Source of the DNA: Asterionella formosa
Taxonomy: Eukaryota
Direction of reading: 5' to 3'
Length of the DNA: 44,556 nucleotides
NCBI GenBank assembly: GCA_002256025.1
Contig: NKIB01014345.1
Location: 1-44,556, forward strand
In this document: positions 21,325-44,556 of the stretch, piece after piece
Position numbering within the stretch: position 1 is the first letter of the stretch
Layout of the letters: every line of letters starts with the position of its first letter
The notes under the pieces: generated by a model
What the model was told of the DNA's origin: nothing
The model's database searches: none
What the model saw: only the letters and a program-made list of their open reading frames with translations
Program-made: the position numbers and the translations under genes

Positions 21325-22765
21325 CTACAAAAAGTTCAACATTCAAAGGAGGTCGGATACAAACATAATGCAAGCCATACTATCCATCCAGTCTAGTTCA
21401 TTGAGATGAATAGGTACATCATACTTTGTTTTTTATTCTTTCAATGTCTCAAAAATAATGTATCGCAATGTTGCAACACTTGTGGTCCACATAGCGATAT
21501 TTTACATCTTTTATATAGTTCAGAGTGGACATACTATCACTGGAAAAATAACTTTCTTGATACCAATCATTATCTAAAGAACCCTCCCAGGTCGTGATCC
21601 CATCATCGACATTTTCATCAACAGTGAAGATTTCCAAACCAGTTTAGTTAGCTAGTATAAAGAGTGTAGGTATAGTAGTAAAGGACGTTATAGTAGCTAT
21701 ATTAGTCCGGTAATAGTTGTCTGAAGAGCCACCAGACACAAGAAAACAGCCAAGAAGTGGAAGACGAAGAGAACGAAAAACGAGTGATTTGATTTGATTT
21801 GAGTCATGGCTGATAGTTGTGTAGCATTAAAGGAGCGAGCCGAGCAGCTGAAACTCGATACTACTACCGGTATGTAACTAACGATCCTCCCTACACTGGT
21901 ACAAACTACTACGTAGGTACCTGGTACAGAGACCAGACTCGCTGCCGGATATAGTATTTGTGGAACACGTCATCATTTGGAAGGACTTCTTCCTGGCCGG
22001 GATACGGAAGTTTCGTGTGGCTGTGGTTGGTATGAAGATGAACACATCTGCCCACCATCCAATTGATCACATGCTTTTTATCATACATAGGAGGGAGGAG
22101 TAGAAAATTGATGTTATGATACCACGCTCTCGGAGGATGAGCAAGCCAAATGATCACGTGCGCCATGACGACCATCAAGCAAGAATGTCGTGATAGATGT
22201 TCCTTCCCTACGGTGCCTGGTACCAGGTACCCTGGTACTGGTATCAGGTCCTACTTGCCTCGATGTTCCTATGTAGCAGGTTGGTACCGGTACCTACACA
22301 CTCTCTACCGGTACCAGGTACTCACTCTCATGTACACGCTCGTCGTCTCAAAGTGCGTTTGGGACTGCTCGCCAGTGCTGTACATAGAGGTAGACAACGA
22401 AGCGGTACCAGGTGGTGTATATATAGTAACTGTAAAACAAAATTTACGTGGTACCGAATGCTTCTTACATACGTATCATGTGCATTATTTGTGATATGGA
22501 GAACACACAAAATTTCTTTCTTCGTGGCTGCTGCTGCCAACCAAACTGCATTTTGTGATAGGCGAATCTTTTTGATCCGGTCTTGTGTGGACCTTCAGGT
22601 AGAATATTATCAATAGGGCACAGAATTTCCGGGAAGCGGATAAAAAGTATTGACTTGAATTCATTCTGAGACTACCAGTAGTACATTGGGATTGAATTCT
22701 CCCCAGGTCGAACCGAATTGGAGCAACAAACCCGAATCCATTGACTCATTCAATTCCATTTCATC

Positions 22766-33264: not shown

Positions 33265-34999
33265 ATGCATGTGTTTGTAAACACTTGCGCTGCAGCCTTG
33301 GCCTTTCTCGTCACCGTCGTCGGGGGTAAGGTGCCACACGTAAGTTCAACCGTTGTGTTCGTTGCTGTTAAGCTACCGGTATAGTAGGGCGAAGATTTGT
33401 TTCCTTCTAATCTTGGATGGCGATTGAATTTGTTTTCACTCTACGTGTTGCTGTTGTTGCTTTGGCCAAGGTATCCAACGTGTATGATTTTCCTTCTCCA
33501 TCAATTGTAGGGACTTCCTGGTGTTGACACGCAAGTTGCGGAGTGTCTTTATTGTCATGTTGCAGTAGTTGACGTACAGTTGCCTGGCGGGCGAGGTGCT
33601 AAAAGCTACAGTTGCGTCACTGAGAGCACACAGGAGGGAGACGGAGAGTCGGAAATGTCGTACACTCTCACCTTTCCTCAGGAATTTATTCATAAACGCT
33701 CGAACAAAGCCAAGATTGACACTGGTGCATCCACGATTTGCATCGCTGGTGGTTCTGCGGTTCGTACTGACTTTGGCACACCTGACTATGTAGTTATTCC
33801 TAGTGGAGCGGCCATTTTCTTTGTCCACGGAAAAAATATCTTTCAGCGTCGATTGGCAGAAGTTGGAATAAGATCTGTTCTTGTAGTTCGTGTCAGTACT
33901 AAAGTGGAGGAACCCACACAGTCCGCCGTAGTCTTTGCCAACGAAACCTTTGGCATTGGAGGGCAACATGTCTCGCTTGCCAGTCAGTACAAAGCTTGCT
34001 CGTTTGGAAAGCTCATGTTCGTTCCCGCAGCGACAACAAAGCTCATTAAAAATGGAGTGATGGAATTGAAACTCCATCAATCCATTAAAGGTCTCGATGC
34101 ACGCAACCTCGAAAATCTCATGAACCTTCGGACAAAAGGGTTACTTGGTGTGAATAGCCTTGGGAGTGCATACTCCCATATTCTCTTTTGCTTGCCGTAT
34201 GGTACCAGAATGAACAATATGACAGGATGGATTGCGTATGGAGTTACAGGCGGAAAGTACTCTTACTACAATGATGGTTCGTTTCGACCGTGTATTACAT
34301 TATTTTGACATAGCTCAATTCTTACCAAAACAATGGTTGTCCTTTCATCCAACCACAGGATGGTGCTCCAGTCTCAGTGCCAAAATGCATGAGATCGGGT
34401 AAGTGAAGCAAATTATAAATGCTGTGTTTTCGTTCTAAATTGAAAAGCTAATTTTCATTGTTATGTGCAGGCATAATTTAGGCGTCGTACACTCTGGTAT
34501 AAACAATGAATACTCAGATGTGACTTGTTCGATGGGAGCCTCCACTAAATCGGCTGGACGGCCAACCATGTGCTTCAATGGTCACAAAAACTATGTCTTT
34601 GGCTGGTATAAAGACAAGCAAATTTTTGTTCAGCCAAGCATAACTGGACCTGTAGCTATCAAACTTTATGGGTTCGTCGACTATCAAAATGCCAATGGAT
34701 ATGTTCTCATCATCGTTGGTCAACTATACATTCAGTTCAATCTTGCAGAAAAATTCAATTCTCAAACTAGAAAGTACCCAAACAATGTTACAATTGTAAA
34801 ATCTACTGGAATTGGCAAAACATCAAATCTTATAAGAGCACTCTCGCCAAAGCAATCTGCTGTGATTGACAATTATTCTATTGATGTGTGCGCTTTGGTA
34901 ACTTCCCGGACTCCAAAATACATGCTTGTCTCGGTGCGCCTGAAAACTCAACATTCAGCCTGTCCATCAGGGGCTACATCTGCACCTGCAAGGAAATAG
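33265..34999 (+). CDS. Secreted gametolysin-family (peptidase M11) metzincin; exons 33265-33339, 33511-34276, 34359-34398, 34471-34999
   Basis: GT-AG splicing keeps frame and builds YSYYNDGWCSSLSAKMHEIGHNLGVVHSG (HExxHxxGxxH), the Met-turn YSDVTCSMG and MCFNGHKNYVFGWY. Also SLASQYKACSFGKL and a signal peptide MHVFVNTCAAALAFLVTVVG. Exon 1 donor is the least certain. Confidence 0.88.
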
Positions 35000-35766
35000 T
35001 CTGCCTCTACTTGTACAGGGAGGCCTACTGGTACTCCGCCAGAAATGACTAGCAAGTGCACCATAACTTGCCAGATAGATTTATATCGTTTTGCATTCGG
35101 TTCTTTGTATTTTATTTGATGCATCAGGACTTGATTCAATTATTCTGACTATGTAAGAGTATTACCAGGTTAAGATTCTGCCGTGGTATGCCATCAGGTA
35201 GAATAGAAACTACTACAGGTACGGTACCTTTGTTCTTTCGACATTATATAGAAAGTATGAAGAAAACATCAAATATTATGCGGTGACGATAACAGCTGAT
35301 AGCTATGGGTTTAGGACTTCCGGTATGTAGCTGGAACTACGTTACGTCCGCATTTGATTTACTACAACAACAAACCTACTGCATGGTTGGTATGGGTTCC
35401 TTTTCAAAACAGCCAGGCGTGAAATGTCACATTGAATATTGCCCTCACTCCCCATCAAAGGGGGAAGTACCACCTAATCTATAATGTATATTTTTCCTTC
35501 TGTTTTACTATTATATACATATCATACTGTATTAAACAAATGCGCTGTTCGGGTTAGCCTTGTTTTATTTCACCATTCTGTCATAATCCAGGTGAAGATC
35601 ATACCAGTAAACTGTCAAATAATGGGAAAGTAACACATAAAAATGTCCCATCCATTATTCCACAATCTCATAAATTAAAAATATATTCTTATTCAAAGTA
35701 GGCATGGAGAGAAAACCAATGCCCAAACGTGCCAAGAAGCTGATATTGTCACACACCAAGTCATCT

Positions 35767-36839
35767 TCAAGTCACTGATGGCTTGCATGCTGGAAGGTAA
35801 CCGATCCCAAAAAACGCAACAGAGCAACAACAAAAGCAAATAATTAACCAAAAATATTTAAGGACCCAGCCAGATTCTCTCATACATTTCGGAGCTTGTA
35901 CCTCTTGTTCCACTCTCGTTATTGCATTCAATGTATACATTGATATTTGGTGGGAATATTTTGATGAACATGGCTTTAAAGAAGTCATCTAGATCCAATA
36001 TAAATTCCATTGCAAGTGCGCTAAATACAATGGAATAAGTGTCAGGTTCAAGGAAAATAATCCAAAGATTGATCAGGTACACAACAGGCTCATAGACTAC
36101 TAGGAACATGAATCAGTCCCATATGACATTTTAAAAAAGTATTCCGCCGCTTGAAGTAGTTGTCAGTAATGAATGGTCAAATTCAACAAATCTCTGCATG
36201 AGTGGAAAAACCAGCTTCGATAAGTAAATGACACCAGTGATGGCAAAAGCGAGCGTTTGATCCACACGATCTGCTCCTTTCGGTCAAAATCCTTGATCAT
36301 AATACACATGTTTATAATATCTCCATTTACTGAAAACCACGATAATCGGAATAATCAACTGAATAGCGAGTATAAGAAAGAGGAAAAGTTTGGTACAATT
36401 ACATGCACAACTCCATTTTGGGTCGCTCCTCCTTCGTGAAGAAGAACATGGTAATGATGCCAATATCTCGATGAGTTTCAACGTAATCTTTCCATCTTGC
36501 GCTATGCCATTCCCTCAAGGGAATTCTGACATGAGCAGTTGCATTCACATTCAGAATTGGGGTCCCCCAAGAATTTTCTGCCATGTTAAATTGATAGAAA
36601 CCCCCACCATTCCCTTGGATTTCTCCTACTATGGATGTTGCAACTGCATCTTCTCTATAATCATATTGGAGGCTGCCCCAACAATTTGGTAACAAAAGGA
36701 ATCCAGGCACACTCTTTTGGTTAGTCTTCAACATTTCAAAACCACAATCAGTCAGAGCCCTGAGCTTTTCACTCCAGATTATGTTGGAGTCAATGATAGG
36801 TGCATGATTTAGAACATCTCTCTTAAATACGGCAATCAT
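35767..36839 (-). pseudogene. Pseudogenised paralog of the 39239-40345 membrane protein
   Basis: Fragments in different frames share WK.YV.THRDIGIIT.FFF, PKW...CTKL.L.LI..IQ.I.PI.V, LV.YEP.VYLINLWIIFLEPDT.SIVF.ALAMEFIL..DD.FK, FGI.YLP.CKPS with the intact gene; several frameshifts and in-frame stops. Confidence 0.9.
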
Positions 36840-37364
36840 GGGAGGAACTATTGCTACTACTAGCCAAGGAAGGGAAGCCTAGGCAAAGCAATATCTCCTA
36901 TATTTCTCGGGATTGTTCCTGACATGGCTGAGATGTGCGATTGATTTGAGGTTTATGTATAATTCTTGAAAAAGTAGGAATATGACTAGTGTGACCATGC
37001 ACATGAGTCACATTGATTGTTGAGACAAGGAAGTACTACCTGTACCTGGCTGTAGAAGCAACGACAAGAAACCCCGCAGATGATTGAAAAAGGACGGATA
37101 GGCAGGCGCGATAGCGAATTACACCATGTCCCGTTTTCGTCATGATAAATTTACTGATATATACACATATATGTTACCTCTATTTGGAGCAGTACATGTG
37201 GTTTATCAACGATATAGAAGGTCTCTGCGAAGATCTACTACACGAGGACATGTCAAGCCTATGTGCTATGTAGTATGTAGTATGCCGGTATGAATATATA
37301 CCTATTTGAGATGAAATGAGAAATGAGAGAGGGAGCAAAACAACAATCGGGCAACGAGGGAAGA

Positions 37365-38303
37365 ATGAAATTTATCAATTGCAATAGCTGCATCCTCCTC
37401 TGCATCCTCGCCATCTCAGTCCATGCATTTCCTCCATCGTCATTAAAGCTTCTAGTATCGAAACGAAACAGTTTCCAATTTCTAAAGAAGCGGCAAAGAC
37501 AATTCGTGCGCTTTTTAGCGGATCACGAAAAATCGCCTGCATTGTTTTCCCGAAGAAATCTCTGGAACTATGTGGGTGCTGCGCTTTTGGGTATTCCTGC
37601 TATTGTCGAAGTGTATTCCCGAGTATCTTCCTTAACCATTGGACCGGATGATGACGGTGTATTCATCATGGATGCACCATCGCAGGGATGGGATGGTATA
37701 AAGACTGCAACAGTTGTCTTTCATGGGGCAGGTGGCCAAGACGAAAACACGGACGCACTCCGCAAGGCTCTTCAGAAAACAGACAACAAGTATTCCTTCT
37801 CTACAATTATTGATTGGAGCAACTACTCTACCAACCTGTTTCAAGCGTCGTTCAATGGCCAAACAATCGGACGTTTTATTGCAGATCAACTCGTGTCCAA
37901 GGCACCGTTGATCGAGAGGGTTCATGTTATTGGAATTTCCGTTGGAGCCTTTGGCTGTACCACATGTGTGGAGAGGATCAAATTGTTGTGCCCGAAAATA
38001 TATGTGCAGCAAACACTGTTGGACCCCTTTTGCCAGCGAGGGATTTTTGATGTTGGGTACGGCGAGAGGAGCTTTGGTGCATCAGCAGATTATGCACAGC
38101 AGTACGTCAACACGGACGATCCAGTCCCCTCAACCAATTCGCCGTTGACAAAATGTGTCGTGTATGATGTTACTTCACTACGACCACGAGAAGTGTTTGG
38201 TCATGATTGGCCATTGATCTACTATACCCGACAAGCTAAAGTCGGGTTCGTGGCCATAAAGGACAAGGGACAACGAGGAAGTGTGAAACGTATTGATCAA
38301 TAG
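37365..38303 (+). CDS. Alpha/beta-hydrolase (lipase-like) with plastid presequence and twin-arginine-like motif
   Basis: VVFHGAGG oxyanion motif, VHVIGISVGAF (GxSxG), LLDPF, GHDWP. Signal peptide MKFINC...SVHA-FP, then FSRRNLW and a hydrophobic helix. An alternative upstream ATG exists at 37323. Confidence 0.8.
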   Translation: MKFINCNSCILLCILAISVHAFPPSSLKLLVSKRNSFQFLKKRQRQFVRFLADHEKSPALFSRRNLWNYVGAALLGIPAIVEVYSRVSSLTIGPDDDGVFIMDAPSQGWDGIKTATVVFHGAGGQDENTDALRKALQKTDNKYSFSTIIDWSNYSTNLFQASFNGQTIGRFIADQLVSKAPLIERVHVIGISVGAFGCTTCVERIKLLCPKIYVQQTLLDPFCQRGIFDVGYGERSFGASADYAQQYVNTDDPVPSTNSPLTKCVVYDVTSLRPREVFGHDWPLIYYTRQAKVGFVAIKDKGQRGSVKRIDQ

Positions 38304-38575
38304 TACTACAATAAGCCACATTGTGTTATCATTGATGGCTAGCTCAAAACAAGGTTAATGCTCTACACACCTTTATATCGTCCAGTTCAATCACACGTCA
38401 GATTGAGAATTCAATAGTGCACATGCACATCACTCGTTCGCTTCCTTCAGTTACTGATCTCCTCCCATTCGTGTATTTACCAATATGCCATTAGGCATAT
38501 CCTCAGGTGATGAAAATGTTGCTTATGTGTAATGGAATATTGGGAAAATTCCCGTTCTATTAAATGATTGAAAAA

Positions 38576-38995
38576 ATGTACCGGTAATGATGTACCGGTA
38601 CTCCCCGGTATGTCTACCGGTAATCGACTGCCCATTGCTATGATACGGAGTACGTGTATGCCAGCAAGTGAAAAAACTTTAGCTGTTTTCCTCCTACAAA
38701 AGGTCGGAAACGTGGACCACCGATTTACCAGGTAAGAATAGTACCGATAAAATAGTTTCCCTTCGACCTCCAGGTACTGGTACCTGTACCTCCCAATAAA
38801 AAACAGGTAGCTGTGTTATTTACCGGTACCTGGTACCAGGTACCAGGCACCAGGTACCGGTACCGTTATCAAGTTCCTTTTGTTCCAACATCCATTTTAT
38901 GCATATGCATCGCTCACATTTACCGGTACCAGGTATAAGTCCACCGGTACCGGTACTCAATTTAAATCAATTACCTAGGTACTACTACCGGGTAT
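38576..38995. repeat. Dense cluster of TACCGGTA / GGTACC / TACCWGGTA palindromes upstream of the 39239 gene
   Basis: For example 38821-38864 TACCGGTACCTGGTACCAGGTACCAGGCACCAGGTACCGGTACC; further copies at 38579, 38593, 38615, 38921, 38944. Confidence 0.85.
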
Positions 38996-39238
38996 TGTGA
39001 TGTTCTCTCCCAAATCCTCATTGTTCATGTTTTGCGTTCCTTTCCTTCGTATAGATAATACATTCAATGTTATCTTGTTACATCTCTCAGGATTATCATG
39101 ATTCCTCCCACTATATCATGTACTTGCCAATCACACAGAGGAACCGATTGATCCAGTCATTTGTGCTCACATCGTTCCAAGAGGTCACCAGTACAACAAG
39201 AGCTATTGATCAGTTTCCCCTGTCGGCCTGCTGGAATA

Positions 39239-40345
39239 ATGTCAGCGATTGCAGTATATAAAGCGCCACGCAACCATGGATCCCTTATGATCGGGAGTGA
39301 TCTATTCCGCAATCTGATTGATTGTGGTCTGACAACCTTGACTAGTACTGGTGTAAGCAACTTAAAAGGATTCAAGATGCCAGATGATTGGAATTTCCTC
39401 TCACCTGACAAAATGGAAGGCTTGGTTGCGGCAGCCATTGTAGATGAGATCACTTCCGAGAACTATGCTTTCTACCTATTCGATGCTAATACTAATACAT
39501 GGAAACAAATTAGTCGACAGGCAGCAATTGATCATGCAAGGATTCCTCTGAAAGCTCAGTTTGTGGCTTCACAACTGGCAATCCAAAAAGAAAGAAGAAA
39601 ACAATGGAAAGTGTATGTCGACACTCATCGAGATATCGGCATTATAACGCTATTCTTCTTTCATTCAAGTAACGAACCAAAATGGAATATGGCTAGCAAA
39701 TATTGCAGCAAACTCATCCTGCTTCTAATCTTCTCAATTCAGTGGATAGTCCCGATTGTTGTAGCAATCAGCAAGAACCGAGAGTATAAGTGCATTTACC
39801 ATGATGGTCTTTGTCCGAATGGGGCTGACCTTTTAGATAGAATTCTCGCATGCTCAATCGCTGTACTTTACTTTTCTAAGCTTACTTTTCTGGGAATGCA
39901 GAAGTTTGTGGATGCTGACCGATCACCACTGACAGTGACAGACAATGGTGGAATACTTCAGACAACTGTGATCTGTGACCGATTCATGTACCTTGTCTAC
40001 GAGCCTGGTGTATATCTGATCAATCTATGGATTATATTCCTCGAACCTGACACTATTTCCATAGTTTTCAGAGCCCTTGCAATGGAATTCATATTGCTTG
40101 TAGACGACCAGTTCAAAGAGATCTTAACTAAAGTATTTCCTCCCAATGTCGACATGTACATGGACTTAAACAATGAGAATGGGATGAGCCCTATAAGCCG
40201 CAATGTGCATGCAATTTTCTGGTCCCTTGGACGACTGTGTTATTTGTTTTGCATTTGTTGTTGTTTTCTTGCCGCCTTTGGGATATGGTACCTTCCATGG
40301 TGCAAGCCCAGCCGTCAAGATTTCTTGCAAGGAGTGTGTACATAA
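39239..40345 (+). CDS. Hypothetical protein: N-terminal DUF6824-like domain + C-terminal multi-pass membrane domain
   Basis: Intact ORF from ATG 39239, corroborated by the paralog. N-terminus GSDLFRNLID...VAAAIVDEI....F..D....WKQISRQAA resembles DUF6824. About 4-6 hydrophobic helices including ALAMEFILLVDD. Confidence 0.85.
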   Translation: MSAIAVYKAPRNHGSLMIGSDLFRNLIDCGLTTLTSTGVSNLKGFKMPDDWNFLSPDKMEGLVAAAIVDEITSENYAFYLFDANTNTWKQISRQAAIDHARIPLKAQFVASQLAIQKERRKQWKVYVDTHRDIGIITLFFFHSSNEPKWNMASKYCSKLILLLIFSIQWIVPIVVAISKNREYKCIYHDGLCPNGADLLDRILACSIAVLYFSKLTFLGMQKFVDADRSPLTVTDNGGILQTTVICDRFMYLVYEPGVYLINLWIIFLEPDTISIVFRALAMEFILLVDDQFKEILTKVFPPNVDMYMDLNNENGMSPISRNVHAIFWSLGRLCYLFCICCCFLAAFGIWYLPWCKPSRQDFLQGVCT

Positions 40346-41063
40346 GTCCATGACAACATTAGTCCTGACATGGTGTTTTCGGTAAATTACTTTCTAGATT
40401 GATTATTTCATTTCATAGCAAAATGATACAATTTTTTTTCGCACTTGGACTTCTCCTTGTTTCATCAGTCGTTGAGGACTACAACCTTGCATAATTGAAA
40501 TACCACATCGCAATACGGCCTGGCTCATCACAGGCACATCGTTGTCAGGCTACATGTAATACTTTCACAAACCATCAGATCTAGCAGAGTAGTACTACTA
40601 GTATTGCTATGCTTAGTAGAGAGTTATATGTTTTCACCTTTGCTATTACTGTCAGAATGCTTGGATTTATAAAGCTGATGATCGTTTGAGTCTTTCTATG
40701 TGGCTGAATATCATTGCCACTGGTAGTATTCCAAGGGAATTGAGTAACACATATGAGAGCCAGTAAAACCAGTATTCCCTCTGTTGCTTGATACTATGTA
40801 GAACATTTCCGATCATGTACCACCTAGTACTTTGATGCTTTGTTGCTCTCCCATGGCAACAATTTTTTTGTAATTTACAATTGACAAATCATCCAGTATA
40901 TGTGCACATAATATCTATTTGAGAGAAATCCAAGTGCCTTCAATGGTATCCACTAAAGTCAATCAATGATCAATGATCACTTCGTAGCCTTCCCTTCTTG
41001 TTGATGATTTCTTCGTTCGTGTTGTTGTAAATGCAGGGATTGAATTGTATTGTGTGGAAGGTA

Positions 41064-41394: not shown

Positions 41395-44300
41395 TCACTT
41401 TGAATTCATAATTTGCTGACGAAAATGAATAAATTTCTTTCCAACCAGTGGTTTCGTCATGTAGTCTGCTAACATTGCATCCGTTAGACAGTACTTAATC
41501 TGTACTTCCTTTCTTTCAATAAGATCAGTAATATAAAAATACTTGATGTTGAAATGTCACGTGCGTTTTCCTGGACTTGCTTTTCCATTTGCTTCTAGCT
41601 TCATTGCGCTAGTGTTGTCACGGTAAATGACATTCGTAGTCACCTTGTGTCCTTGTGCTTCAATAAATAATTTCGTCCACAACACCTTTGATATGATGTC
41701 ATCGACACCAACCAATTCTGCTTCAGTCGAACTTCTAGTGTTCACTTTCTGTTTCGTAGACATAGTACAGATAATTCCATTTCCAAGTGACATTGTAGCT
41801 CCTGTGTGACTTTTAAAATCTTTGTGTACTGCAAACGCCGCATCAACATACCATTTAATGCTCTGTGTGTCATCAGCACTCATAGATGCAACCTCGTCTT
41901 GAGTTGCTTTCAAGAAATTCATGATCTTGACTAATTTTACCCAATCGCCTTCATTCGGTTTGGTAGTTCGGGTTGCCAGAAATACAATTCCTGGTTAAAT
42001 GTCCTGTCTTCCTCGCTTACATAGGAACATTCCTTTCATAACAAAAGTATGAAACAATTTTGCTTTTTCAATGTTCAAGCTTCTTTGATTTTGTATCAAC
42101 TGTGAACAATTTATCTGTCCATGGAAATTTTCCGACAACTTCAAGTTTATCCGGAAAATCATTAATCATTGATATCACATATTTGGTCATGTCCACCCTC
42201 AACACTCCTGGAAGAGAGTAATCTAGTGTCATTGCCAAATAATCATGCTTATTTCCACGCATGACCTTGACTTCACCAATTTCGTCAGAAGCGTATTTCT
42301 TTTTGAGCCATTCCAAAAATTGATCATTCACTTTGCTGTCCACGTGAATTGATTTCAAATCGTCTACGTGCCAAGTAACTGTGTGCTGTTTGCCATTAAC
42401 AATGCGATTTGCAACGCATGGATCATATGGGTTGACCTTGAATCCAATTGACTCAATATCCTTCCGAAATTTCTTGTAATATAATAATGATGACTGTAAC
42501 ATGCCATATAATGCCTTGATCATCCTAACATATAGGACCTTGTTGTTCCCTTCATAAACAACATATTTTTCATAAGTCTCGGGGCTGAGTTCTGTCAACA
42601 TATTGACAAGCAAACCTCTAATCTTCATAATGATTCGTTCCCCTTTTTCTTTCTCATCGATATCCACTTGCACAAATGCATTGGGTATATCTGCAGTCAT
42701 AACATCGCGATTTTGCTTCGCATCAATTGTTGCTGTTATCATAACAGATTCAGTCATGGTAGTTGGACTAGCTGCTTCATCTCTTTCCATGTATTCACGT
42801 TGCGAACTGCCATTGGCACATGCTCTGCCTTTAATGCTCTTATCTCTCTTTTCAACCAAAAAAATTAGGCTTTCCATTGCACGTCGCTTTTCGATATCGG
42901 TTAGGTCTTCAATCCTAATCGGTTCAAACACAACTCTATCATGTAGTTGTTTCATTTCTTTATAGGCAGCGTCTCTTCCTTTCTGGCCAAATTTCTTGAG
43001 GCCTTTCCTTAAGCTGTATGACTGAACAAAGTGAAATGCTTCTTTATCGATACACATCTCATTCATATAACACATTGTCTTTGCGATCACTTTCGCATTA
43101 TCAGTCGTGTATTCTTCTCGACAGTGTGCTTGGGTATGCAAATGATTTTGGACCATAGTTAGTTTTGATGGTGGTCTTGAGACTCTTCCAGACCTTGTAG
43201 TTCTAACATTTGGGTCTGAGTCATCCTGAGTGCTTGGATTGACTTCTAACATTGCCTCTTCATTTTCAGTTTCATTTGCTGGCTCTTCATCCTCATCTTG
43301 GATATCATCTGCATTCATTTCGATATTATTCTCATTGTTGCCCTCGTCAGGTTCAGGGTCATCCTCTTGAGTATTGTCGTTTAATTCGAGCTGTTCTGCT
43401 TCATATATTTCATCCGGAGTCATTGCGTCATAGTCTTCTTCTCCGAGAATTTCATCATTGCTTTCGTTGTCACTAGCATCTTGATCTTCATAATCTTCAT
43501 CTTGTGCATCTTCAAATGCTTCGTTATCATAATCCACTCCTGCAATCCAAGCACTATCATAAAATAGTTGTCCTGTTCGATTTGATATCTTGAGACCATC
43601 TGGCATATTTTCTTGCACAGCAAGGGCGTGTACTTGATTCATGATTGCTGGGGTAAGTGGTAGAGGAGTAATTGTTCGTCTAGTGATCAATGAATTTGTA
43701 GGTAGGTGTAACAATTCATGACCTCCTTGCACATTGTCATTGTAGCGTAGAAAAATGCAATCTAGGCTGCGGGGTGCATTAGTGTTTGAAAACACAGGTT
43801 CTTCATGTGCTTGGACATAAGTGCCAAATGTATACTGGCAATGTCGAGCATAGTCCAGGTTTCGTTGATGTAAAATCATACGAGGACTGTAATACGGGGA
43901 TATCCCGTTCTTTGCCGGAAAGAAATTCAGTTTCCTTGCAGATTCTGTCACTAGAATCTTAATCATCAGTCGCGGCAAATGTTTGAAAGGTAATCGATGA
44001 TAAGCTGCGCGCACGCGTTCTTTAATCACTCGATTATTTCGCTCCGCTTCGGGAACATGTTCTTGTGGGTTTGCGTAGTTCATAGTGACTTGAAATTCAT
44101 TGGAAATTTGTTCCATCAAAGGTCGAAACTCGTTGTCACAGTGGATTGTTGTAATTTTAAATCCTCCGGTATTATAAACACGGAATACTTGAATCAAAGC
44201 ATCTCGATAGACTTCAGCTGTCTGATTCTTGACCCATTGCGCTGTCCTATACATAATGTTTCGAGAAATTGTTGTGAGAAATGATTGTCCATTGACTTTC

Positions 44301-44556
44301 ATTCCGTCCATGCAAAGAGTCACTTCGCGTTGAGCTTGAATAAGCTCCTTAGGAATCTCGATGTAGTCGTTCACGACTGGCAGCGGCTTGCGACGAGTTG
44401 TCTTGCCTTTTAGTGTTCCGATGTCAGGCCCAAAAATTTTCTCTGCAATTTTGATATCATCGGTAGTCACTGGATTATTGTTGATCGTATTCATACGAAT
44501 TATTGCCTTGAAATCATTAATTGATGGTGTACCCAAGGCATGAAATAGATCACGAG
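41395..44556 (-). mobile_element. Ty1/Copia (CoDi-type) pol: integrase-RT-RNase H, disabled; 5' part outside the window
   Basis: Integrase (DGMKVNG, IHCDNEF, EHVPEAERNNRVIKER), RT (ADIPNAF, KALYG, NPYDPCVAN, WHVDD), RNase H (WYVDAAF, SSTEAE, YRDNTS, ADYMTKPL). Lesions: frameshift near 42070, TAA at 41995-41997, TGA at 41557-41559. Confidence 0.95.

Follow-up and report, generated by a model that had tools for sequence, protein, structure and literature searches.

The contig NKIB01014345.1 of Asterionella formosa (assembly GCA_002256025.1), analyzed here over its whole length of 44,556 nucleotides on the forward strand and referred to below as the window, carries at positions 39239 to 40345 an open reading frame (ORF) in which a nonhydrophobic N-terminal head is joined to a hydrophobic half. 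This layout raises the question of which half does the work, namely, whether the membrane part serves as an anchor for a regulatory head or is itself the functional unit. An earlier note, made from the sequence alone, had favored the former and described a DUF6824-like domain on a multipass membrane domain as a candidate membrane-tethered regulator. We find that 39239-40345 is a real gene encoding an intact five-helix integral membrane protein (hereafter, the Asterionella protein). Its working part would be the membrane bundle, which belongs to an apparently undescribed family of ochrophyte algae and aquatic giant viruses, and its head, a degenerate DUF6824 descendant, would act as an adaptor or regulatory handle, not as a releasable factor.

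A five-helix membrane domain shared by algae and giant viruses

The AlphaFold2 model of the Asterionella protein, made with 132 sequences, contains five long helices (predicted local distance difference test [pLDDT], 87.1; predicted template modeling score [pTM], 0.79), and hydropathy placed hydrophobic segments at about residues 157-177, 200-220, 258-288, and 326-352 (Table 1). An exhaustive HMMER search of 1.84 billion representatives returned 136 family members at an E value of ≤1e-3, 56 at ≤1e-10, and 12 at ≤1e-30, and nearly all of the 136 match residues ~115-360 only. Pfam placed no model on the membrane domain in any of 135 relatives. Known modules were found on the N-terminal side of four of these relatives (LRR in P0058, ankyrin repeats in P0080, and SPRY in P0107 and, below the cutoff, in P0138), and in P0093 a ZZ finger occupies the loop that follows helix 4 and is predicted to be cytosolic. 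The members from named organisms are hypothetical proteins of Fragilaria crotonensis (KAI2502794.1, KAI2502771.1, KAI2502778.1, and KAI2502773.1) and hypothetical or unnamed proteins of Tribonema minus (KAG5181017.1) and Phaeothamnion confervicola (CAM9518306.1). In Fragilaria crotonensis, at least four members (P0031, P0153, P0045, and P0162) lie on one 94,055-bp contig, a tandem expansion.

When the whole protein was submitted to the language-model Atlas, unnamed clusters, partly of Nucleocytoviricota, were returned with scores of 0.81 to 0.82, and these served only as a lead to a viral scan. A 20-row alignment was then used to scan IMG/VR and found at least 52 loci (L124 to L175), many of them in metagenome-assembled genomes of giant viruses. 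Each of the 52 holds an ORF of 228 to 401 amino acids (aa), the 228-aa ORF being cut short by the end of its locus, that matches the family hidden Markov model (HMM) at 1e-28 to 1e-43. The neighboring genes in the eight viral loci examined encode DNA polymerase B, PCNA, ribonucleotide reductase, a Pox_A22 resolvase, a D12 methyltransferase, a RecQ-type helicase, and PHO4, and the loci look like genuine giant-virus contigs. With one viral ORF as the query, a word-indexed search returned 482 clusters at an E value of ≤1e-5, all of them without a Pfam domain or an informative name. Judged against Pfam, PDB, and BFVD, the family appears to be undescribed, and an unnamed entry for it may exist in other databases. 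The locus leads to a five-helix membrane family that lacks annotation, abounds in aquatic giant viruses, occurs also in ochrophyte algae, and is marked by striking buried polar residues.

The acidic residues of the membrane half, which the earlier note had picked out from the two copies in the window, turned out to be conserved across the whole family and not only between these paralogs (E255, D271, E283, and D289), as were D247, N262, C192, and C355 (frequencies in Table 1). Of 13 landmark positions (G134, Q168, C192, Y211, D247, E255, N262, N278, E283, D289, K293, C355, and K356), the Asterionella protein retains 12, the missing one being Asn278, which is replaced by arginine. In the model, these polar residues would lie at three depths, with D247 and D289 toward the cytosolic side, Q168, Y211, E255, and E283 in the middle, and N262 and N278 toward the outer side.

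The orientation of the bundle was predicted from three features. Lysine plus arginine averaged 13.7 in the flank before helix 1 together with loops 2 and 4, versus 3.0 in the segments predicted outside (loop 1, the turn between helices 3 and 4, and the tail). Among 103 sequences covering the columns of both Cys192 and Cys355, 98 have both cysteines, 3 have neither, and 2 have only one, a co-variation that fits a disulfide on the non-cytosolic side; a Cys192-Cys355 bond linking loop 1 to the C-terminal tail is therefore probable. Finally, the first 150 residues are devoid of a hydrophobic leader. Because of the charge bias, the cysteine pair, and the leader-free N terminus, the head is predicted to be cytosolic, as the earlier note had assumed, in an N-in/C-out topology that leaves the C terminus outside or in the lumen.

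Fold comparisons of the kind that the earlier note had suggested for the membrane domain provided no relative: the full model had no Foldseek match at an E value of ≤1e-3 in either PDB or BFVD, and the best VIA-align Z score against 48,161 chains, 6.3, was within helical-bundle noise. Two weaker candidates were rejected. The soluble methyltransferase 3g5l_A, found at an E value of 1.3e-4 by a sequence-profile search of PDB, reflects a local hydrophobic match of 34 residues, and a zf-LITAF-like Pfam match of the whole protein (E = 0.12) falls on the cysteine-rich helix 5 and was treated as composition.

Taken together, the stacked carboxylates and amides, the disulfide, and the presence of the family in algal giant viruses are best fitted by a protein handling an ion, a proton, or a small solute. 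We thus favor, tentatively and with somewhat less than even confidence, a membrane module of this type whose head is a cytosolic adaptor or regulator. The bundle would bind or conduct a cation, a proton, or a small polar solute through the three polar layers, and the probable disulfide, by linking loop 1 with the C-terminal tail, would staple its outer face. Membrane proteins of algal viruses have repeatedly proved to be minimal channels or transporters, as illustrated by the chlorovirus potassium channel Kcv and by viral phosphate and ammonium transporters. The wording of the earlier note, a channel-like protein with a cytosolic regulatory domain, remains a possible reading compatible with the evidence.

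The same buried residues could alternatively form the active site of a membrane-embedded enzyme, with Asp, Glu, Asn, Gln, and Tyr acting on a lipid, a glycan, or a lipid-linked substrate and the cytosolic module recruiting or regulating the activity. Nearly invariant carboxylates and amides inside helices and a conserved interfacial helix would suit such an enzyme, and enzymes that modify lipids and glycans are frequent in the giant viruses of algae. However, no Pfam enzyme family was found in the 135 cellular and metagenomic relatives or in eight viral ORFs tested, the fold searches gave no match, and the histidines and serines typical of membrane hydrolases and transferases are absent from the positions conserved at ≥60%, His142 (66%) excepted. 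We consider this explanation quite unlikely.

The N-terminal head and the branch that carries it

DUF6824 (PF20710) is a soluble-protein domain without an assigned function, a large family with abundant representatives in metagenome records of aquatic eukaryotes; no paper in the library searched names either DUF6824 or PF20710. The head of the Asterionella protein (residues 1 to ~115) is present in about 8 of 139 proteins, a set made up of the 136 family matches and 3 word-search matches. Its carriers are few, namely, P0006, P0007, P0016, P0011, P0020, P0140, and the fragments P0128 and P0043. Searched with Pfam as a whole, the protein gave no PF20710 row at an E value of ≤10. With residues 1-118 alone, PF20710 was the top match (E = 0.12), covering residues 62-99 on profile positions 40-77 of 84, but its 13.3 bits lie below the gathering threshold of 27 bits; among seven related N-terminal domains, two matched, with a best E value of 0.032.

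Profile-to-profile comparison was clearer. We assembled a DUF6824 set by scanning metagenomes with a degenerate pattern of the N-terminal loop (partly taken from the earlier note), which gave at least 123 loci and 121 distinct domain stretches; 50 of these were taken, and all 50 were confirmed as PF20710 (best E value, 9.4e-35). Aligned with hhalign, the seven N-terminal domains and the 50 DUF6824 domains matched over 51 columns with a probability of 94.3%, an E value of 1e-7, and a score of 44.5, versus a maximum of 16.5 in 150 column shuffles and 9.2 for the reversed alignment. Three disjoint subsets of the N-terminal domains each hit the same region of the DUF6824 profile (the Asterionella protein alone, E = 6.6e-5; P0006, P0007, and P0128, E = 6.1e-6; P0016, P0011, and P0020, E = 1.3e-4). 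In addition, an unfiltered HMM of the 50 domains, run against the 139 proteins, reported exactly the eight head-bearers, and it matched none of the 52 viral ORFs. The language-model Atlas, used only as a lead, gave PF20710 for all of the ten best named clusters with residues 1-118 (scores of 0.80 to 0.82). Word-indexed searches with the protein and with the N-terminal domain profile returned only 4 and 5 proteins, respectively, and no DUF6824 carrier.

The predicted structures point the same way. In the AlphaFold2 model of a DUF6824 domain (pLDDT, 93.3), strands at residues 7-9, 64-69, and 76-80 and helices at 19-37, 41-56, and 83-95 follow one another in the order strand-helix-helix-hairpin-helix. 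The head shows the same order (compared element by element along the sequence), with a strand at residues 4-8, helices at 21-29, 32-36, and 56-73, a hairpin at 76-82/87-90, and a long helix from residue 93; it has one short extra helix and a lineage-specific insert of ~19 residues. Both models also picked the same weak PDB segments (8a3t_T, residues 208-287, and 6wq2_A, residues 72-167). No clear fold relative emerged for the DUF6824 model from Foldseek and VIA-align, the top Foldseek rows, the TAM/MBD domains of BAZ2A, being too weak for use (E = 0.4), and the DUF6824 profile found nothing in PDB sequences at or below an E value of 0.18.

The 50 DUF6824 domains share 16 invariant columns, most of which lie in the loop after the first strand. 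At most 3 of the 16 are kept in the Asterionella protein, as judged from an extended alignment of low confidence, and the Asp-Val-Leu start survives only in the decayed copy of the gene, P0006, and P0007. We conclude from the sequence comparisons that the head is a true but degenerate relative of DUF6824, although not a member by the Pfam criterion, and that it keeps the DUF6824 fold while the invariant glycine/arginine/asparagine/histidine loop is lost. The DUF6824 fold can thus outlast the loss of its invariant loop, and the head is the first divergent DUF6824 relative in a membrane context. Of the two outcomes that the earlier note had said would speak against it, no DUF6824 match and an extracellular N-terminal domain, neither was found, since the head is DUF6824-like and predicted to be cytosolic.

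Canonical DUF6824 ORFs look different: 120 of 122 were without a strongly hydrophobic stretch in a 19-residue window, and none of the 122 matched the membrane HMM, in keeping with the impression of the earlier note that the architecture had not been described. As the canonical ORFs are soluble, the fusion is confined to one small cellular branch. Among long canonical ORFs, all 58 matched PF20710 and one had another Pfam match, a weak one. Some canonical proteins (metagenome loci L007, L026, L031, and L051) contain two DUF6824 domains in one ORF, and a 1015-aa DUF6824 ORF (L032) has a weak match to KAP P-loop NTPases.

These data bear directly on the proposal that the protein is a membrane-tethered regulator whose head is freed by proteolysis, possibly by the neighboring secreted metzincin, and moves to the nucleus. 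A cytosolic, DUF6824-related head would fit this scenario, canonical DUF6824 proteins are long and soluble (57 of 58 ORFs without another Pfam domain) as regulators might be, and a metzincin-like ORF lies about 4 kb away. However, the membrane half is the conserved and widespread part (136 clusters, plus giant viruses) and occurs without the head in the majority of relatives and in every one of the 52 viral copies, the reverse of what a tether would lead one to expect, and the head is exchangeable and has lost most of the DUF6824 invariants. A conserved, portable bundle with an exchangeable N-terminal side is the opposite of a tether for a releasable factor. Furthermore, a secreted protease would, in the predicted topology, meet the outside loops and not the cytosolic linker. 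The link to the metzincin rests on adjacency, which carries little functional weight in a eukaryotic genome, and the M11-like gene, which is broken into two ORFs and reaches 20.9 bits where the cutoff is 21, stands next to the decayed copy and not next to the intact gene. We regard a releasable head as highly unlikely.

As for this neighbor itself, the metzincin-like gene at 33655-34996 (+) is split over two ORFs, possibly by an intron or a frameshift, and only the second ORF scores, with Peptidase_M11 (gametolysin).

We then considered where the head-bearing proteins fall within the membrane family. In a FastTree tree of 147 membrane domains (a quick, unrooted tree with long branches), 43 viral rows stood on one side of a branch with a support of 100. 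The Asterionella protein grouped with the Fragilaria proteins in a 45-row cellular clade (support, 97), inside which it fell in an 11-row clade (support, 94) that held all seven head-bearing rows. Of the 119 rows outside the 11-row clade, 114 keep Glu283, 115 keep Asp289, and 107 keep Asn278.

Several observations weigh against ion or solute handling by this protein with the head as its regulator. Within the 11-row clade, only 2 rows retain Glu283 and only 3 retain Asp289 (i.e., they are replaced in 9 and 8, respectively). Asn278, present in 114 of 130 sequences, has become serine in three rows of the clade and arginine in the Asterionella protein, the only arginine among the 130, so that the canonical function may have been lost in the head-bearing branch. 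The polar layers derive from positions along predicted helices and not from measured distances, and no known homologue found with Foldseek (PDB and BFVD) or VIA-align ties the membrane domain to transport. On the side of the head, the similarity to DUF6824 covers the C-terminal half, the N-terminal half not being significantly similar, and Pfam's own threshold for PF20710 is missed.

The replacements in the branch would also suit a nonconducting adaptor or "pseudo-channel," in which the bundle has lost its polar site and anchors or positions the head or regulates canonical paralogs by joining their assemblies. The high retention of Glu283 and Asp289 outside the clade, the unique Arg278, and the decay of one of the two local copies all agree with such a loss. 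Against it, just one of the 13 key positions is changed in the Asterionella protein itself, with D247, N262, E283, D289, and both cysteines all in place, and the membrane part is better conserved between the two paralogs than the head is (50% versus 38% identity). This explanation is unlikely in our view, if by no means negligible. Returning to ion, proton, or solute handling, the frequent replacement of the acidic pair in the branch, together with Arg278, indicates that the activity of the Asterionella protein is probably modified relative to that of canonical members. In a bolder version of this reading, which we find rather unlikely, the membrane half would represent a new class of small membrane proteins that conduct ions or protons (or bind cations) and are shared by algal giant viruses and their ochrophyte hosts, with no solved or annotated fold relative. 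One diatom-lineage branch would then have taken on a cytosolic domain derived from DUF6824 and altered the polar pathway, so that a regulated variant specific to the host arose.

The gene, its decayed copy, and their surroundings

The coordinates of the gene, of the segments of its product, and of the second copy are collected in Table 1. Position 39239 is the first in-frame ATG, and the frame is closed 78 nucleotides (nt) upstream; an alternative start, Met17, is used by a 352-aa database entry. A 368-aa protein, P0002, which differs from the Asterionella protein by one residue (position 180), is predicted on other public contigs, and so is a close homologue.

Table 1. Positions of the 39239-40345 gene, of the segments of its product, and of the decayed copy in the window
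Feature	Residues	Positions	Strand	Basis	Family conservation
Whole coding sequence	368 codons plus stop	39239..40345	+	Intact ORF	
N-terminal domain, predicted cytosolic, common to several relatives	1-107	39239..39559	+	AlphaFold2	
DUF6824-similar core (DUF6824 profile columns 39-90)	56-107	39404..39559	+	hhalign	
Linker helix with basic juxtamembrane stretch, and interfacial helix; motif around Gly134	93-129; 135-141	39515..39661	+	AlphaFold2, conservation	G134 91%
Membrane helix 1 (Gln168)	151-187	39689..39799	+	Hydropathy, AlphaFold2	Q168 96%
Outside loop 1, Cys192-Pro193 motif	188-197	39800..39829	+	Conservation	C192 94%, P193 77%
Membrane helix 2 (Tyr211)	198-227	39830..39919	+	AlphaFold2	Y211 92%
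Membrane helix 3 (Asp247, Glu255, Asn262)	240-268	39956..40042	+	AlphaFold2, conservation	D247 97%, E255 62%, N262 96%
Acidic turn Glu-Pro-Asp between helices 3 and 4, predicted outside	269-271	40043..40051	+	AlphaFold2, charge count	D271 53%
Membrane helix 4 (Arg278, Ala281, Glu283, Phe284, Asp289, Lys293)	272-299	40052..40135	+	AlphaFold2	N278 88%, A281 93%, E283 89%, F284 94%, D289 91%, K293 75%
Membrane helix 5, cysteine-rich in the Asterionella protein	321-354	40199..40300	+	Hydropathy, AlphaFold2	
C-terminal motif Cys355-Lys356-Pro357	355-357	40301..40309	+	Conservation; viral relatives end exactly at Cys-Lys	C355 96%, K356 89%
Decayed paralog		about 35770-36839	-	Three reading frames, two frameshifts, three in-frame stops	

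The decayed copy aligns with the intact protein over its full length. Its N-terminal domain lies in one frame (36839-36405), its membrane part in a second frame that contains the three stops, one of which replaces the family-conserved Cys192 of loop 1, and its C-terminal helix in a third. At the DNA level, the copies share 68% identity over 724 nt, and both show the nonhydrophobic N-terminal part of ~110 aa, as had been claimed for the pair. Relatives of the decayed copy are intact elsewhere (P0003, 214 aa and 72% identical; P0006, 334 aa; and P0007, 339 aa), and the database ORF P0128 corresponds to an N-terminal fragment of the decayed copy.

RNA-library contigs from four libraries in three studies cover parts of 39034-40579 at 95 to 100% identity and contain no splice joints, one of them (39034-39278) being colinear across the start of the ORF. 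They show presence in RNA libraries and leave transcription itself unproven. Depth over the gene was low, 2 to 15. The region of the decayed copy (35500-37200) was uncovered in all four runs, and such missing cover proves nothing.

This evidence also bears on whether the gene is a decaying or nonfunctional lineage-specific one that is heading for the fate of its neighbor. The decayed paralog 2.4 kb away, Arg278 in place of a near-invariant asparagine, and the low RNA-library depth could be taken as signs of this. Conversely, the reading frame runs uninterrupted through 368 codons, other assemblies contain a copy that differs at one residue, all but one of the 13 key family residues are present, and RNA-library contigs from three studies cover the gene. 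We regard decay, too, as highly unlikely.

The gene content of the window is eukaryotic, with an ERG4/ERG24 sterol reductase, an IPP transferase, an S49 peptidase, a P-type ATPase, and a copia-type reverse transcriptase, and its G+C content is about 40%. Between the two paralogs lies a 326-aa ORF at 37323-38303 (+) with a weak match to Lipase (alpha/beta-hydrolase; E = 0.05); RNA-library contigs run from end to end over this ORF at a depth above that of the 39239-40345 gene, and the neighboring gene at 37341-38505 is likewise covered at higher depth. A copia-type retrotransposon fragment at 41557-44554 (-), 1.7 kb downstream of the 39239-40345 gene, consists of an 828-aa open-ended ORF with RVT_2 and a downstream 121-aa ORF.

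A palindrome-rich word, GGTACCGGTA, occurs 10 times in the window versus 0.02 times expected, and none of 100 shuffles reached 10. All copies are intergenic and fall at four spots (5439, 13682, 22283-22315, and 38821-38955), directly upstream of the ERG4/ERG24 gene, a 1183-aa minus-strand ORF, the P-type ATPase gene, and the 39239-40345 gene; the word is possibly a motif associated with promoters. An array of the 7-nt unit TACCAGG occupies 38821-38864, where contigs of other origin accumulate in RNA libraries.

Comparison with known systems

The head resembles DUF6824 in the helix, the beta-hairpin with its Gly-Gly-x-Phe and Trp positions, and the following helix, which align over residues 56-107, in the order of predicted secondary structure over the whole domain, and, in the paralog and its relatives, in the Asp-Val-Leu start. 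It differs in being fused to five membrane helices, in the absence of the invariant loop, and in its insert of ~19 residues.

The membrane half has its closest parallels in its own family. The Fragilaria, Tribonema, and Phaeothamnion proteins are cellular members with the same membrane domain, and Fragilaria, with several copies on one contig, recalls the tandem pair of the window. These proteins retain the canonical Asn278, Glu283, and Asp289, and their N-terminal sides differ, with acidic low-complexity sequence in Fragilaria, LRR in Phaeothamnion, and a 1841-aa multidomain protein in Tribonema. Giant-virus ORFs of 300 to 400 aa (e.g., L127:2248-3324 and L124:2674-3747) and the UniRef entry A0A6C0C443 ("Uncharacterized protein," viral metagenome) have the same five-helix domain, including the interfacial glycine motif, the glutamine of helix 1, the Cys-Pro of loop 1, the Asp/Asn/Asn/Glu/Asp series of helices 3 and 4, and the C-terminal Cys-Lys. 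They are only 21 to 29% identical, carry other N-terminal extensions, with a DUF6824-like head in 0 of 52, and form a separate clade. The domain is a compact, well-conserved candidate that can be tested directly by heterologous expression.

Among functionally described proteins, tethered transcription factors of the SREBP/ATF6/NTL type, released by regulated proteolysis, compare poorly: no DNA-binding or transcription factor Pfam domain was found in the Asterionella protein at an E value of ≤10, and its membrane part is the more conserved and widespread half and not a simple anchor. Unlike TRP or ryanodine-type channels, the family has five helices per chain, and similarity to a solved channel or transporter was detected neither in sequence nor in fold. 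The layout, however, is reminiscent of these channels, in which cytosolic N-terminal modules are exchangeable, as with the ankyrin repeats of TRP channels and the SPRY domains of ryanodine receptors. Here, too, a conserved membrane core is preceded in some members by cytosolic modules of the ankyrin, SPRY, or LRR type, and since the DUF6824-derived head occupies the place of these modules, it is most likely an adaptor or regulatory handle.

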